A stretch of DNA of 64,000 bases. It comes from an uncultured Candidatus Binatia bacterium. Its GTDB lineage: Bacteria; Desulfobacterota; Binatia; UBA9968; JAJDTQ01. The stretch spans positions 384,001 to 448,000 of the forward strand of contig OZ243916.1 in assembly GCA_965213675.1 (NCBI GenBank). The letters are read 5' to 3'. Positions 53,013 through 62,337 of the stretch are shown here, piece after piece. Within the stretch, counting starts at the first letter, position 1. Each line of letters begins with the position of its first letter. Position numbers and translations under genes: made by a program. Under the pieces are notes generated by a model, which saw nothing but the letters and a program-made list of their open reading frames with translations, was not told the DNA's origin and searched no databases.

Positions 53013-53588
53013 TTACCCCAGCGGTATGTCCACGCCGTTGAGGGTCAGCTCCGGCACCACTTCCACGGGCCGCCGCAGCGTGTTGGTGGTGTAACAGGAG
53101 CGTTCCAGCGCCTCGGTGAACTCGACGATGCGCTCCTGACTGTCCGGACTTTGCAGATCGAGCCGATACACGAGCCGGGTGCACGCCGAGGGGACGTCCG
53201 ACAGCCCGAACTTGCCTTTCTGGTCGAACTCGCCGCGCACCGACATCTCCGCGCGCTCAATGCGGATTTCCATGAATGACGCCAACTGCGTCACTTGGCT
53301 GAGCATTCAGAAGCCGATGGACGCGATGAAATATTGCAGCGGGGCCGCGCCCTTGCCGGTGCCGCCGCGCGACTCTGGCTCGTCGCACAGGATGGTGTAA
53401 CCTTCCGACGTCCTGGCTTCCTTCAGGTGGTCGTTGACCAGGCGGATGCGCGCCTCATGCACTGTGACCGCCTTGGACGGATCCTCCCGGTAGACCTTCT
53501 GCCGCCGTTCGAATACGGCCTTGTGGCGCCGGTAGTCGATGGAGCAGCAGCCGGGATCGTCGAATTCCCGTTCTTCGTCAATGGCCAT
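53013..53588 (-). CDS. OsmC-family protein with in-frame UGA (probable selenocysteine), 191 aa
   Basis: ORFs 53307-53588 and 53013-53306 are contiguous in one frame: DEPESRGGTGKGAAPLQYFIASIGF-UGA-MLSQV...ERSCYTTNTL. The UGA sits at the first conserved OsmC Cys. GGAGG RBS. Confidence 0.85.
53273..53309 (-). promoter_or_regulatory. Candidate bacterial SECIS element of the OsmC-like gene
   Basis: UGA + 13 nt + UGACGC-AGUUG-GCGUCA perfect 6-bp hairpin. UGAA can also pair with the downstream UUCA. Confidence 0.7.
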
Positions 53589-55120: not shown

Positions 55121-55244
55121 AAGCCCGCCCCGCAAGTACCGTGACCGGCTGTGGTGGGACGATGTCGGGACGATGCCCCGTCGGGGCTGTTGCGGGCGAC
55201 CGCTTGGCCAGCCTGCTTCCCGGGGACACGCCGTTTGCCGACTG

Positions 55245-56077
55245 CGTTGGCTGCGTCTGAAGATTTTCCTTCGCACGGATCAGGCCGACGAAAACCGCAT
55301 CGCCGACTTCCCGGACGCATCCAAGGTGCTGTCTTCCTCGGCGGAACTGGGTTGGCCCGCGCGCGAACTCTACGGCCTGTTGTGGCAGTGCCTGATCAAC
55401 GGGGCGACCGGGGACCAGTTTCGGGCCTTCCTCGCCCAGGAGGGCTGGCCTTCCGCGGAAATTGCAGGCCAAACGCTGTATCACGTTCCACGTCGACTTG
55501 TTTCCGCCGACGACGCTCAGCGCCGGAAATTTTACGAGATCTCCGGACCGTGGACGGGCCGGAACGCAAAGCGCGGCTTTCCCTACACATGGATTCCCAA
55601 CCACTTGGGAGATACAAGAGGCCAGGTAAGTCCACGGTCGTTTCTTGTCGCCTTGCGTGAAGCCGCTCGGGACACGGCGGAGCGCCACCCGGAGCATGAC
55701 CACGCGCTGCACTTCGAGAGCATCAAGCACGGCGTGCAGAAGGTGTCCAGCATACGGGTTGCCGAAATCAGGGAGGACTATCCATGGATGCCCGCGTACT
55801 CGCCCCGCTCGTAGGCATGATGGTTCCATGTGGATTCGAGGCAATTGTCGAGCGCTGGAACCGGGAGAGGAGTCTGAAACTCCTGATTGAGGATTCCCAA
55901 CAGGATGAGATCAAGCTTCCGCCTCGTCACGCCGACCATGGGGCGGACGGAGTTCTCCAGGACCTCGAATCGCTGGGCGTGTTCCAGCCCCTGTACGACG
56001 GGCGCGTGAATATCCCCGACGTGTTCCGGGTTGGCCATGGCCTGGGCCGCAAGGGCGGCGTGAAACCGGCCCAATGA
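55245..56077 (+). pseudogene. C-terminal remnant of a P-loop ATPase (Sll1717-like), 5'-truncated and frameshifted
   Basis: LKIFLRTD...YTWIPNHLGD...SPRSFL...EDYPWM, then after a 1-nt shift at ~55791 RVLAPL...LESLGV...RVNIPDVFRVGHGLGRKGGV. No Walker A part present. Family call from memory. Confidence 0.65.
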
Positions 56078-58024: not shown

Positions 58025-59074
58025 CTACTTCTTCGCTTGACTGACCAGGAAGGACAGGCTCTCCTTGACCTCTGGCGGCATGTTGATGATCCCGTCCACG
58101 AGTTTCTCTACCTCCGGACCCGGCACATAGGTGAACACGAGTTTCGCCTTCTTGGCTTCAGCCAGCAGTTGGGGGTCCTTCACGGTTTTCTCGTAGGCTT
58201 TCCGCAGGATTTCCACGCGGTCTTTGGGCGTGCCCGGCGGCAGCGCCAGCATCCTCTGGAACGCCATCTGGAACGCCCATGAGTTGTAGAGCTTGAGACC
58301 TTCCTCGTTCAGCACGTCCTTGAACAGCGGAATGTTCTGGATCTCCGGATCCGGATAGCTGTGGCTGTGGATGACGAAGGGAACCAGTTTCTGGTCGCCC
58401 TCGGCGTCCAGCATGCTTCGGGCGGTCACCCTCATGGACTCCCACTGGGAGCAGAAGCCGTCCACCTCTCGTCCTTCCAGCGCCAGCCGTATGGTGGCCG
58501 TGCCCCGGTACCCGGTGATGATCTTCAAGTTGGTGCCCAAGGCCTTGTTGAGAATCGCCGGGATGTCGTGGCCGGTGGAGCCGGCCCGGGTGGCGCCGAT
58601 TTTGATGGGCTCCTTGGAGTTGACGACGTCTTTCCACGTGGTCTTGCCGGTGAAAGCCATCATCATGCACACGATCTCGCCCCGGCTGGGGGCGCCGACC
58701 CATTCCAGCTTGTCGAAGGGCACCGCGCCGGCCTTCTTGTCGCCCAGTGCCGACTGCACGATGAGCGAGTTGTTGAACACCGCGCCGCTGAGCCCGTCGG
58801 GTTTGGCGCGCCGGCCGATGTAGTTGGCGGAGATGAGGCTGCCGGCGCCGGTCATGTTCTGAACCAGCGTGGTGGGGTTGCCGGGGACGTACTTGCCGAA
58901 GTAGCGGGCGATCAGCCGGGTGTAGGTGTCGTAGCCGCCTCCGGGAGAGAAGCCCACGATGAAGCGGAATGTCTTGCCCTTGTAGAAGTCTTCGGCGCGT
59001 CCCTCGGGCGCCGCGAACAGGGCCGCGCCCCCGATGATGGCCGCGGCCAGAAAGGATAGACCTTTGCGTGTCAT
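58025..59074 (-). CDS. Bug/TctC-family substrate-binding protein (orphan)
   Basis: Signal peptide, DFYKGKT, GFSPGGGYD, QNMTGAG, KPDG, GYRG, PPGTP. Confidence 0.92.
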   Translation of the reverse strand: MTRKGLSFLAAAIIGGAALFAAPEGRAEDFYKGKTFRFIVGFSPGGGYDTYTRLIARYFGKYVPGNPTTLVQNMTGAGSLISANYIGRRAKPDGLSGAVFNNSLIVQSALGDKKAGAVPFDKLEWVGAPSRGEIVCMMMAFTGKTTWKDVVNSKEPIKIGATRAGSTGHDIPAILNKALGTNLKIITGYRGTATIRLALEGREVDGFCSQWESMRVTARSMLDAEGDQKLVPFVIHSHSYPDPEIQNIPLFKDVLNEEGLKLYNSWAFQMAFQRMLALPPGTPKDRVEILRKAYEKTVKDPQLLAEAKKAKLVFTYVPGPEVEKLVDGIINMPPEVKESLSFLVSQAKK

Positions 59075-59232
59075 GGATGTCCCTCCGTTTCGGTTTTGCC
59101 GGCGTTGCCGGCGCCAAGCCCCCTTGGCTACAGAAGTGGGCCTGTCATGTCAAGGCGCGCGGTCAGCGCATTGAGAAATGCGCCGGCCGGTGTTATGGGA
59201 TGACGGTAGACAAACCAGGGAGGTACTTGTTT

Positions 59233-59466
59233 ATGGCAGATTCCATCGTTCTGTTCACTCAGCCCGGTTGACCGCCTTGTCATCGAGAGAAGGAGTATCT
59301 TTCTCAAAAAGGCGTTGATTTCGTGGAGAAGAATATTCGTGAGGACCAGGACGCCCTGAAGGACCTGCTGGCCCGGGGCTTCCAGAGTACGCCGGTGGTC
59401 ATCATCGACGGGGAGGCGGTGGTCGGTTTCGATCAGGATCGGATCGACACGCTTCTCGGGCTCTGA
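59233..59466 (+). CDS. Glutaredoxin/NrdH-like redoxin with UxxC active site (probable selenoprotein), 77 aa
   Basis: Hand translation: MADSIVLFTQPG-U-PPC-HREKEYLSQKGVDFVEKNIREDQDALKDLLARGFQSTPVVIIDGEAVVGFDQDRIDTLLGL. TGA at 59269-59271. GGGAGG RBS. cis-Pro motif TP and GF are present. Confidence 0.9.
59269..59314 (+). promoter_or_regulatory. Candidate bacterial SECIS element of the glutaredoxin gene
   Basis: Lower stem CGCCUU/AAGGCG. Upper stem GAGA(G)AAGG/UCUUUCUC starts 13 nt after the UGA, with loop AGUA. Confidence 0.7.
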
Positions 59467-59585
59467 TCCGAAGACCGTGCCCGGGGTTTCCGAACCACGG
59501 TGGCGGGCGGCGCGGCGTGCGCCGGATGGCTTGTTCGGTTGGTCGAATCGTGGCGCGTCGCAGGGACACGGGAAACGCACCTGCG

Positions 59586-59649
59586 GTCGCGCCTTGCCGA
59601 CAACGAAAAAAACCTGCGCAACTTGTCGCAGGAATTTACGGGACACGAC
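59586..59649 (-). repeat. Partial MITE-family copy overlapping the stop codon of the Mo-subunit gene
   Basis: Reverse complement GTCGTGTCCCGTAAATTC...GTCGGCAAGGCGCGA aligns with the left arm of the 40693 MITE (GTGGTGTCTGGTTAATTC...GTCGGCAAGGCGCGA). Confidence 0.6.
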
Positions 59650-61867
59650 CCTTGGCCTTGAGCGCCTTGACGATCTTTTCCGGTGTGAGCGGAAGGTCGT
59701 GGATGCGCACGCCCACGGCGTCGAACACGGCGTTGGCCATGACCGCGGGTGGCGGAATGATGGGCGGTTCGCCCACCCCTTTGGCGCCCAGTGGCCCAGA
59801 CGCGCAGGGGTGCTGGATGAGGCGCACATCCACTGCGGGGGCGTCCAGCGCGCTGAATATCTTGTAGTCCAGCAGGTTGGGATTATCCATTTTCCCGCGG
59901 GTGAAGGTGCATGCTTCGCTGAGAGCCTGCCCCAGCCCTTGCAGGACCCCGCCTTCGATCTGACCGCGCACCGACAGCGGATTGACCGCGGTGCCCACAT
60001 CCTGCGCCGCCACGTAGCGCAGGATGCGTACGTGGCCCGTCTCCGGGTCCACCTCCACCTCGGCCGCGTGGGCCGCCATGGCGGGGTGCGGGGTGAGCTG
60101 CGACACGGACTGTGCGCTCACGATGGGGCCGCGCGCGTGCTCCAGGGCCATCTGACCCACCTCCCGCAGCGTCACGGAGCGCTCCGGGCTACCCTTGACG
60201 AATACCTTGTTGCCGTCGAGTTCCAGGTCGCCGGCGTCGGCTTCGAGCCGATCCGCGGCCACCTGCTGAATCTGCCGCTTTGCCTCCCGGGCCGCCTGCA
60301 GCACCGCGCTGCCCATGCTCTTGAGCGCCTGACTGCCCGCGCTGAGGGTGGAATGGGGCGCGAAGTCGGTGTCCGCGGTGCGCACATGCACGTCGTCCAG
60401 GGACACGCCCAGCACTTCCGCCGCGATCTGGGCCAGTGAGGTGCTCGCCCCGCTCAGGTCCACCAACCCGGTGAGGATGGCGACGGTGCCGTCCTCGTTG
60501 AGCTTCACGCCGGCGCTGGAGGCCATGCCGCCCACGAGCCAGTGGGCCATGGCCACGCCGCGTCCGATGTGCTTCCGCCGCGGTTTCGGGGCCGCGTTCA
60601 GGGCCTCCGCCGCCGTGAGCAGCGTTTCCCTGGCGTGCACGTCCTCGAGCCGGACGCCGGCAGGGGTCTCGTCGCCGTCCACCATGGCGTTCCGCAGCCG
60701 CATCTCCACGGGGTCGACGTCCAGCTCCCGGGCGATGATGTCCATCTGCGACTCCGAAGCGAAGGCGAGCTGCGGCCCGGCCGGCCCGCGGTAGGCGCCG
60801 CACGTCGGCGTGTTGGTGTAGACGCAATAGCTGTCGATCCTGAGGTTGGGGATGCGGTAGGGGCCTGGCGCGCGCACCGCCGCGCCCTGGCTGATCATGA
60901 CGCCCGAGCCGGAGGAGAAACCGGTCCCCAGCACCACTTCGATTTCCCGCGCCGTGATGGCGCCGTCGTTCCTGACGCCGGTCTTGTAGCGGAGGTGAAA
61001 CGGATGCCGCGGGTTGGTGGTCTGGAAGTCCTCGCTCCGGCTCATGACGATGCGCACCGGGCGCCGCGCCTTGCGCGCCAGGGCCACCGCCGCGGGCTCC
61101 ACCGTGGGCGACAGCTTGCCGCCGAAGCCGCCGCCGATCTCGGTGGGGATCACCCGTACCTTGGTCATGGGCATGCGCAGGATCTGCGCGATGGCGGCGC
61201 GCAGCGGGAACTGCGCCTGGGTGGGCGCCCACACGGTGGCCTTGCCCGAAGCGTCGAAGCGCGCCAACGCGGTGTGCGGCTCGATGTAGGTCTGATGCAC
61301 CATGGGGGCGTGGAAGCGGTGCTCGAAGATCCGGTGGGCTTCGGCGAAACCACGCTCCACGTCGCCGCGCACGATCCGCTTGTGGCCGCAGACGTTGCCA
61401 CGGCGGTCCAGGTCCGGCTGCGACCAGTATTCGGCGTAGTCCTCGTGCAGCAGCGGCGCGTCCGGCGCCATGGCCTCCAGTCCGGAGGTCACCGAGGGCA
61501 GCACCTCGTAGTCCACCTCGATGAGCCGTGCCGCCTCCTCCGCGGTCTCCTCGTCCATCGCCGCCACCGCGGCGATGCGGTCGCCGGCGTAGCGCACCTT
61601 GGTGGTGGCGAAGTAGGCTTCATCGCGGACGAAGCGGCCGCAGCGGATGTCCGGCAAATCGGCCGCGGTGACCACCGCCCGGACGCCGGGCAACCGCTCG
61701 GCGCCCTCGGTGCGGATGGCGGTGATGCGGGCGTGGGCATGCGGGCTCAACACCATCTTGCCGCACAGCACCCGGCCGCCGGGTGAGACGTCGGCGCCGA
61801 ACACCGACTGTCCGGTGACCTTCTCCATGATCTCGACCCTGGGAAGCTCCTGACCGACGACTCTCAT
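59636..61867 (-). CDS. Xanthine dehydrogenase family molybdopterin-binding (large) subunit
   Basis: KVTG, SPHAHA, IGGGFGGK, AYRGPAG, SAGS, GQIEGG, AKGVGE. Confidence 0.92.
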   Translation of the reverse strand: MRVVGQELPRVEIMEKVTGQSVFGADVSPGGRVLCGKMVLSPHAHARITAIRTEGAERLPGVRAVVTAADLPDIRCGRFVRDEAYFATTKVRYAGDRIAAVAAMDEETAEEAARLIEVDYEVLPSVTSGLEAMAPDAPLLHEDYAEYWSQPDLDRRGNVCGHKRIVRGDVERGFAEAHRIFEHRFHAPMVHQTYIEPHTALARFDASGKATVWAPTQAQFPLRAAIAQILRMPMTKVRVIPTEIGGGFGGKLSPTVEPAAVALARKARRPVRIVMSRSEDFQTTNPRHPFHLRYKTGVRNDGAITAREIEVVLGTGFSSGSGVMISQGAAVRAPGPYRIPNLRIDSYCVYTNTPTCGAYRGPAGPQLAFASESQMDIIARELDVDPVEMRLRNAMVDGDETPAGVRLEDVHARETLLTAAEALNAAPKPRRKHIGRGVAMAHWLVGGMASSAGVKLNEDGTVAILTGLVDLSGASTSLAQIAAEVLGVSLDDVHVRTADTDFAPHSTLSAGSQALKSMGSAVLQAAREAKRQIQQVAADRLEADAGDLELDGNKVFVKGSPERSVTLREVGQMALEHARGPIVSAQSVSQLTPHPAMAAHAAEVEVDPETGHVRILRYVAAQDVGTAVNPLSVRGQIEGGVLQGLGQALSEACTFTRGKMDNPNLLDYKIFSALDAPAVDVRLIQHPCASGPLGAKGVGEPPIIPPPAVMANAVFDAVGVRIHDLPLTPEKIVKALKAKGRVP

Positions 61868-62337
61868 GATTCCTTCGCTGCCTCCATGACCGCCTGGATG
61901 ATGGTACCGTAGCCGGTGCAGCGGCACAGGTTGCCGGCGATGGCGTGGGTCACCTCCTCGCGGGTGGGGGAAGGGTTGCGGTTCAGCAGGGCCTTGCCGG
62001 CCATGAGCATGCCCGGCGTGCAATAGCCGCACTGGGCTGCGCCGGCGGCGGCGAAGGCGCGCTGCAGCGGATGCAGAGACTCACCGTCGGCCAGCCCCTC
62101 CACCGTTTCCACGCTCCGGCCGTCCGCTTCCACCGCGAACACCAGGCAGGCATCCACCAGCCGCCCGTCGAGCGTTACCGAGCAGGCGCCGCATTCGCCC
62201 TCGCCGCAACCTTCCTTGGTACCGGTGAGATCCAGGTCGTCGCGCAGGAAATCCAGTAGCGAACGGGTCACCGGCACTTCCTCCAGGAACGGCTCGCCGT
62301 TGACGGTTACCGTGATACGGATGCGTGGAGTCTCCAT
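61864..62337 (-). CDS. Xanthine dehydrogenase family 2Fe-2S (small) subunit
   Basis: GCGEGECGACSV...AC, QCGYCTPG, GNLCRCTGY. Confidence 0.93.
   Translation of the reverse strand: METPRIRITVTVNGEPFLEEVPVTRSLLDFLRDDLDLTGTKEGCGEGECGACSVTLDGRLVDACLVFAVEADGRSVETVEGLADGESLHPLQRAFAAAGAAQCGYCTPGMLMAGKALLNRNPSPTREEVTHAIAGNLCRCTGYGTIIQAVMEAAKES

Follow-up and report, generated by a model that had tools for sequence, protein, structure and literature searches.

A predicted selenocysteine glutaredoxin-like protein encoded by an uncultured Candidatus Binatia bacterium

The redoxin gene and its neighbourhood

The window, i.e. the whole stretch of 64,000 nt that was analysed, contains a reading frame that starts with ATG at 59233 and ends with the stop codon TGA at 59464-59466. 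A single internal TGA (59269-59271) occupies the position of residue 13. Read through, the frame encodes an 8.6-kDa redoxin of 77 aa with the motifs U13-P-P-C16 and T53-P54. With table 11 the sole call was a stub with a GTG start (59068-59271), which stops at the internal TGA. This agrees with the original prediction, which had noticed nothing but the stub in the list of open reading frames and had proposed a complete 77-aa read-through product with UGA at the nucleophile position of a CxxC motif. The features of the locus, together with the TGA-bearing peroxiredoxin matches of the genome, are given in Table 1.

Table 1. Coordinates of features in the window and of peroxiredoxin matches elsewhere in the genome (C1, contig of the window; C12, another contig)
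Feature	Position	Strand	Remarks
OsmC-related selenoprotein gene	53013-53588	-	split by in-frame TGA; NF041052 135.2 bits (cut-off 95)
TctC/Bug-like solute receptor gene	58025-59074	-	divergent; PF03401 25.4 bits, E 1.2e-5, just below cut-off 27
Probable sigma-70-type promoter	59171-59199	+	TTGAGA, 17 nt, TATGGG; TG ahead of second hexamer
Shine-Dalgarno sequence GGAGG	59219-59223	+	9 nt 5' of ATG
Sec redoxin CDS	59233-59466	+	77 aa with TGA as U; Cp9/YruB/BC3987/cGrx1-like thioredoxin fold
Thr9	59257-59259	+	four residues ahead of nucleophile; aligns with Thr8 of BC3987 (3ZIJ)
In-frame TGA as Sec13	59269-59271	+	nucleophile of U-P-P-C
bSECIS	59273-59314	+	upper stem 59287-59294/59298-59305, loop GUA; lower stem 59273-59278/59309-59314
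Cys16, resolving residue	59278-59280	+	aligns with Cys16 of cGrx1
Thr53-Pro54	59389-59394	+	Pro54 at cis-proline position of thioredoxin fold
True stop codon TGA	59464-59466	+	no second Sec
Molybdopterin hydroxylase large subunit gene	59636-62032	-	xanthine-oxidase family; convergent
AhpC/TSA match with TGA	C1:574114-574500	+	
AhpC/TSA match with TGA	C1:1006697-1007074	-	
AhpC/TSA match with TGA	C1:1471141-1471497	-	
AhpC/TSA match with TGA	C1:2958251-2958625	+	
AhpC/TSA match with TGA	C1:3533667-3534062	-	
AhpC/TSA match with TGA	C12:20639-21016	-	

The GGAGG sequence is present upstream of the redoxin ortholog in 25/25 loci of the genus, in keeping with the good ribosome binding site that had been claimed. 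A promoter scan with strict consensus found none upstream of the redoxin gene, and the one terminator returned by the same scan (59613-59632, minus strand) was at chance level. With a pattern of our own (TTGA[GC]A, a spacer of 16-18 nt and TA[TC]G) a match was obtained upstream of the redoxin gene in 22 of the 25 genus loci. On the minus strand TTGACA is followed 17 nt later by TAGCCA (59119-59154), pointing to the Bug gene; these hexamers probably constitute a divergent promoter, placed back to back with that of the redoxin gene. The word TGTCAA recurs upstream in many loci of the genus.

The predicted protein scored well above the cut-off of the Pfam glutaredoxin model (PF00462; 55.5 versus 22.9 bits) and its AlphaFold model had a pLDDT of 91.3. 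The position of Thr9 is occupied by Thr in 25/25 genus orthologs and by Thr or Ser in other families, and Cys16 was kept in 40/40 orthologs. Pro54 was invariant in an alignment of 35 sequences, which upholds the TP cis-proline motif of the original prediction; its geometry is presumably cis, as in the thioredoxin fold generally.

The gene stands alone between the Bug gene and the molybdenum hydroxylase genes, as first described. It is transcribed away from its upstream neighbour and towards its downstream one, and so probably forms a transcription unit of its own. The OsmC-like gene, a member of a known family, lies 5.6 kb upstream, and its TGA is followed 19 nt later by a hairpin of 8 bp. The Bug neighbour was found in all 23 close loci and in 0/5 short loci of other families; 19 of the 23 also had the molybdenum hydroxylase subunit next to the gene, and 15 had the OsmC-like gene no more than 5 kb away. 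In 12 of 15 sister-family loci the upstream neighbour was a divergent glutathione S-transferase (GST) gene, with two further loci cut by contig ends, and SDR, M28 peptidase and isochorismatase genes also lay nearby. A scan of 45 of the 89 flanking ORFs found neither OsmC nor TctC near the sister-family redoxin, and no partner gene of the redoxin was adjacent in the window or in the scanned neighbours. The best match to the sister-family GST in the genome itself is about 412 kb away from the redoxin gene. Because the Bug/molybdenum hydroxylase context is specific to the genus, it says little on function, and gene order suggests that the neighbours in the window reflect lineage history.

Some further observations concern the surrounding DNA and the sequencing runs. 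Two overlapping ORFs in different frames (55173-55814 and 55784-56077, plus strand), located between UbiD-like and AMP-ligase genes, seem to be parts of a single gene, either decayed or inserted; in most relatives the UbiD-like and AMP-ligase genes adjoin directly. In run X1 the contig depth jumps 15-30-fold, with many loose ends, at about 59569-59670 and 60028-60078. These places are intergenic after the molybdenum hydroxylase gene and within that gene, which suggests a short repeat or a sequence common to other organisms. The redoxin gene was not covered by the RNA runs X20 and X21. RNA run X23 gave one contig over 59233-59387 with nine differing letters and a depth of 2.7, a kind of evidence that cannot show transcription. 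Runs with a small share of the sequence were labelled sponge metagenome, a label that was not taken as a habitat.

Selenocysteine at codon 13 and the SECIS hairpin

The redoxin gene was matched in 41/41 genomes searched in the order, comprising the genome of the window, 24 others of the genus and 16 of two other families. Codon 13 is TGA at all 25 genus loci, at 15/15 loci of the other families and at one partial locus (G040). TAA or TAG never occurs at this codon in the 41 genomes, and the frame remains intact down to 62% identity. The cysteine homologs expected of such a protein were abundant: among the best 150 representatives the residue aligned to Sec13 was Cys in 135, Trp in two and Arg in one, the other 12 not reaching the site. 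Further TGA-containing homologs were found in the samples of the class and the phylum.

The original prediction presupposed that the genome possesses a selenocysteine machinery and that the reads have TGA, not TGC or TGT, at 59269-59271. The genes selA, selB and selD were all found above their cut-offs in one cluster on the contig of the window (C1:2713784-2718389), and selD itself carries a TGA. Two tRNA-Sec genes are present, one on the same contig (C1:323213-323307) and one on C4 (C4:3174-3268), and the tRNA with the TCA anticodon is of the 95-nt Sec type. The genome is 97.7% complete with 8% contamination; the C4 copy, like a duplicate peroxiredoxin on C12, may stem from the latter. As to the reads, a contig of run X1, which may be the source sample, spans 58763-59315 including the TGA with 0 differing letters.

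The hairpin that follows UGA13 has an upper stem of 8 bp, a loop starting 23 nt past the UGA and a lower stem of 6 bp, and it fits the bacterial SECIS consensus model as quoted in PMC13188914. Folding energy was dropped as evidence for the element, its z value being -2.29 in one 49-nt folding window and -0.15 to -0.76 in four others. When 6000 TGA triplets were drawn at random from the contig, 109 (1.8%) had an 8-bp stem by our own bSECIS rule. Because folding energy stood out in only one of the five windows, conservation was used instead. Across 43 loci (27 of them distinct) 99.5% of the cells of the upper stem were paired, compared with 72.8% of those of the lower stem. In other words, the upper half of the two-stem hairpin that had been claimed held up, with 8 bp and covariation, whereas the lower half is poorly supported beyond the genus.

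Two pairs of the upper stem were changed on both sides (A-U to C-G and A-U to U-A), each probably in one event, and two were changed on one side. With the register fixed, 8/8 pairs are kept at 52 of the 54 TGA loci and 7 at the other two, all with GU at the start of the loop, while 10 Cys loci keep 3-7 pairs and have GU in two cases; this contrast is favoured by the greater distance of the Cys loci than of most TGA loci, and the counts are not independent as the genomes are kin. Five Cys loci keep the peptide K/M-E-F/Y-L and yet lose the full hairpin. Within the genus synonymous divergence was 0.12 in codons 14-28 versus 0.29 in codons 30-77, Mann-Whitney tests on this being descriptive only since they treat codons of related genomes as independent. 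The GC3 of the redoxin gene was 0.33 and 0.83, respectively, in the same two regions.

It might be argued that the TGA is a real stop codon, an assembly error or a recoded Trp codon, so that the product would be a pseudogene or a fragment of 47 aa. Database entries are indeed mostly fragments of 43-60 aa, two have W at position 13, and the folding energy of the hairpin is unremarkable in four of five windows, but this explanation is scarcely tenable in the face of a codon that is TGA in 41/41 genomes within a frame that stays open, a full Sec machinery whose TCA-anticodon tRNA is of the Sec type, the covariation of the SECIS together with the contrast to Cys homologs, and a terminal stop for which TGA interchanges with TAA and TAG (TGA 24 and TAG 1 in the genus; TAA 7, TAG 6 and TGA 2 in the other families). 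Because UGA13 lies at the nucleophile site, does not vary within the order and precedes a conserved SECIS, and because SelA, SelB, SelD and tRNA-Sec are present, SelB should insert selenocysteine there; judged from the sequences, we predict incorporation with very little doubt. The invariant TGA, the machinery and the conserved SECIS likewise sustain the original claim of an unannotated selenoprotein.

Relatives, distribution and database records

The redoxin is a selenocysteine glutaredoxin-like protein, and since this class has been catalogued and experimentally studied it is not a new one. PMC13188914 lists Sec-glutaredoxin with UxxC (PF00462, one Sec) among the known prokaryotic selenoproteins. 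The redoxin resembles this class in reaching the PF00462 cut-off, in its UxxC motif, its one Sec and a bSECIS within limits, its glutathione dependence being only putative.

The best match by sequence was cGrx1, the dithiol glutaredoxin-1 of Clostridium oremlandii OhILAs (E 4.9e-20, 47% identity; PDB 7C10 and 7C12). The 77 residues align without gaps, Sec13 and Cys16 are at identical positions, and the two proteins share a C-terminal G-F-D motif. They differ in the active site, which is U-P-H-C in cGrx1 and U-P-P-C in the redoxin, and come from different phyla. PMC7642778 and PMC4479559 describe cGrx1 as a selenoprotein in its native form, with U13 and C16, and propose that it reduces Sec-MsrA. 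According to the latter source, Grx and not Trx reduces the Cys-free Sec-MsrA of C. oremlandii; cGrx1 is termed a glutaredoxin and modelled with GSH as the reductant. While the partner of cGrx1 is this Cys-free Sec-MsrA, both MsrA matches in the Binatia genome are without TGA.

A fold search with the AlphaFold model retrieved cGrx1 (TM 0.92) and BC3987 of Bacillus cereus (TM 0.87-0.93; PDB 3ZIJ), followed by NrdH proteins. BC3987 has Y-T-Q-P-D-C-P-P-C where the redoxin has F-T-Q-P-G-U-P-P-C. The P-P dipeptide, T-Q-P-x before the nucleophile and the Thr before the cis-Pro are common to the BC3987/Cp9/YruB-like redoxins, from which our protein differs by Sec in place of the first Cys and by an identity of only 38-41%. 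The BC3987 gene is stand-alone, as is the redoxin gene; the Cp9 gene, in contrast, is situated in an operon between TrxR and Prx genes, neither of which adjoins the redoxin gene. According to PMC3720550, Thr8 of BC3987 is proposed to stabilise the buried Cys thiolate, and BC3987 is closest to Cp9, an electron shuttle from TrxR to peroxiredoxin. The same source states that BC3987 reduces class Ib ribonucleotide reductase (RNR) in vitro and is thought not to be the RNR donor in vivo.

No NCBIfam model reached its cut-off with the redoxin. The best was the YruB/Cp9 model TIGR02196 (74.5 bits, cut-off 88.55), and the NrdH model TIGR02194 gave 58.1 bits (cut-off 85.75). The redoxin shares the compact fold of NrdH-redoxins, with a TM of 0.82-0.85 for four of the five NrdH chains listed. 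An identity as NrdH was nevertheless rejected on the grounds of this score, the lack of a C-[VIM]-Q-C motif, the lack of an nrdHIEF operon and a class II RNR. Thus the glutaredoxin part of the NrdH/glutaredoxin fold proposed originally is borne out by PF00462 and the structural model, while membership of the NrdH family is contradicted by motif, operon and RNR class. The UXX-star families, which have a glutaredoxin-like fold and a second Sec at a C-terminal position, matched weakly. They were rejected too: all their models remained below cut-off (NF041212 51.7/66, NF041114 27.7/72, NF041211 37.3/100, NF047338 32.8/97), and the redoxin has one internal TGA only, its terminal stop interchanging between TGA, TAG and TAA. 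For NF041114 two Sec are listed in PMC13188914, and the definition of the NrdH motif is that of PMC3720550.

At E <= 1e-12 the redoxin gene was found in 26/26 other genomes of the order and in 12/174 other genomes of the class sample; at E 1e-14 it was found in 14/301 of the phylum sample, several with one TGA. The active site is U-P-P-C in the genus and U-G-P-C in the sister families; one genome of another family (L113) likewise has U-P-P-C. Four loci of the sister families (L086, L087, L088, L120) belong to an additional Sec-redoxin paralog, in which the active site is U-[AG]-S-C and the SECIS is the same with a compensatory change of A-U to C-G. In a quick tree of 108 sequences and 78 columns, in which 65 of 105 inner branches were open, the genus was one clade (SH-aLRT 98) within a weak order-level group (88) that also took in three representatives. 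Because the tree is mostly open and this group weak, it was not used to count the origins of Sec. The records of close relatives are labelled as Candidatus Binatia, Deltaproteobacteria, Syntrophobacterales or Thermodesulfobacteriota MAGs.

Of 14 near-length database matches 12 were fragments of 43-60 aa without the active site, and the two full-length ones had W at position 13, probably as a result of gene calling with an alternative code. The clusters of 47-aa fragments take in sequences from NCBI, ENA, JGI and Logan. It had been foreseen that standard pipelines would miss the gene, and what the databases hold is indeed mostly the 47-aa fragment without the active site. Seven database proteins (P0022, P0080, P0100, P0127, P0133, P0160 and P0165) start just past the nucleophile (M-F-C... 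or M-R-A-C...) and are probably truncated Sec-redoxins of other lineages; the P0080 cluster contains Acidobacteria records.

The BSepDB screen includes at least 11 Binatia genomes according to PMC13326102 (Table S1), and BSepDB may already contain orthologs of the redoxin. Binatia and sponges are unmentioned in the available part of the review PMC13188914, and a term search of the deep-Sep paper gave no mention of glutaredoxin, NrdH or Binatia. Our literature searches found no paper joining Binatia, sponge and glutathione, and none on selenoproteins bearing the names Binatota or Binatia was among the matches listed.

Redox partners and possible role

The genome encodes a thioredoxin reductase (TrxR; C1:3897892-3898797) above the cut-off. 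Glutathione reductase (gor; C1:1752815-1754143 in the genome of the window) was found in 25/25 genomes of the genus and in 7/16 of the sister families, and gshA in 41/41 genomes (25/25 in the genus). In contrast, gshB was found in 0/25 genus genomes versus 14/16 sister-family genomes. That gshB was not found where gshA and gor are kept suggests glutathione uptake, the use of gamma-Glu-Cys or an unrecognised synthetase; the eukaryote-type glutathione synthetase model PF03917 had no match anywhere, controls included, and is uninformative. A separate Grx3-like gene encodes CPFC and GG-F-DD, GG-x-DD being the glutathione-binding motif. The single RNR match is a class II, B12-dependent NrdJ (C1:520295-523084) about 77 kb from the redoxin gene.

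Among 11 AhpC/TSA matches in the genome six have one in-frame TGA at the redox site, in the contexts T-P-G-U, T-G-G-U, U-Y-N-C, U-G-K-C and T-U-P-P; the six include one near-identical pair, with one copy on C1 and the other on C12. The BCP-like match at C1:574114-574500 translates without any Cys. The genome appears rich in candidate Sec redox proteins.

What might the redoxin do? Our tentative preference, with a probability of roughly 0.45, is for a stand-alone Se/S redox shuttle that is fed by TrxR and recycles peroxiredoxin-type selenoenzymes. By the chemistry of the family, the exposed selenolate of Sec13 would attack an oxidised S or Se atom on the target protein. Cys16, helped by Thr9, would then resolve the mixed bond, leaving a Sec13-Cys16 selenenylsulfide that would be re-reduced mainly by NADPH and thioredoxin reductase. 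The likeliest targets would be the Sec-peroxiredoxins of the genome and above all the Cys-free BCP-like protein, by analogy to the recycling of Cys-free Sec-MsrA by Sec-Grx1 in C. oremlandii. The outcome would be housekeeping peroxide defence and not a role in the neighbouring operons. This assignment is favoured because the top folds are cGrx1 and BC3987, because Cp9 provides a precedent for electron transfer from TrxR to Prx and TrxR is present, because gshB was found in none of the 25 genus genomes, because a separate Grx3-like gene exists, and because the genome has Sec-peroxiredoxins including a Cys-free one. The choice of the latter as target follows from its parallel with the Cys-free Sec-MsrA, which needs a glutaredoxin. 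The lack of a partner gene nearby, the modelling of cGrx1 with GSH, the retention of gor (25/25) and gshA (41/41), and the divergent GST (12/15) and gshB (14/16) of the sister families would all speak against feeding by TrxR.

A close rival, though a somewhat less likely one, is a true glutathione-type glutaredoxin like cGrx1. It would be reduced via glutathione reductase by gamma-glutamylcysteine or by GSH, the latter imported because gshB was not found, and its clients would be MsrA, 1-Sec peroxidases or deglutathionylation. That cGrx1 is the best relative by sequence and structure, with Sec at the same residue 13, is well accommodated here, as are the presence of gor and gshA throughout the genus and the GST neighbour of the sister families. 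Against this, gshB was found in none of the 25 genus genomes, a dedicated Grx3-like gene is available, and the redoxin itself is without the GG-x-DD motif. Moreover, both MsrA matches are without internal TGA, and the GST of the sister families is encoded on the other strand, while what matches it best in the genome lies about 412 kb away.

A further and rather unlikely possibility is that the redoxin of the genus has switched partners and has become the hub of a Se-to-Se antioxidant relay, which would serve other selenoenzymes as well as Cys-free Sec-peroxiredoxins. The bacterium would be unable to finish glutathione synthesis and would run on TrxR, gamma-glutamylcysteine or glutathione from its surroundings. 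The sister families combine U-G-P-C with the divergent GST and gshB, whereas the genus combines U-P-P-C with a changed gene position and the lack of a detectable gshB, gshA and gor being kept; this correlation rests on one evolutionary branch, and U-P-P-C is also found in L113.

Less probable again is an NrdH-like role with electron delivery to RNR, here the class II NrdJ, as the main job. NrdH models and structures are among the matches, presence in 41/41 genomes of the order is what one would expect of a housekeeping gene, and BC3987 can reduce class Ib RNR in vitro. This role is nonetheless hard to reconcile with the missing C-[VIM]-Q-C motif and nrdHIEF operon, with an NrdH score below its cut-off, with a single RNR gene about 77 kb distant and with the view that BC3987 itself is not the RNR donor in vivo. 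Finally, we give little credence to a local Sec redox relay of the redoxin with the OsmC-like selenoprotein (NF041052), the Bug receptor and the molybdenum hydroxylase: their association in the 23 close loci comes from close relatives with broad conservation of gene order, the sister families have GST, SDR, M28 peptidase and isochorismatase genes instead, and genes on opposite strands cannot share a transcript.

To a selenoprotein specialist a protein of this kind will come as no surprise, since the class and the near-identical architecture of cGrx1 are known. Its recognition sets right an error that recurs systematically in the annotation of an order of uncultured bacteria. Its hairpin is useful for SECIS models, being a clean bacterial element that covaries and for which the Cys homologs serve as an internal control, and the natural pair of U-G-P-C and U-P-P-C redoxins provides a test of how the dipeptide and Sec tune the choice of reductant.
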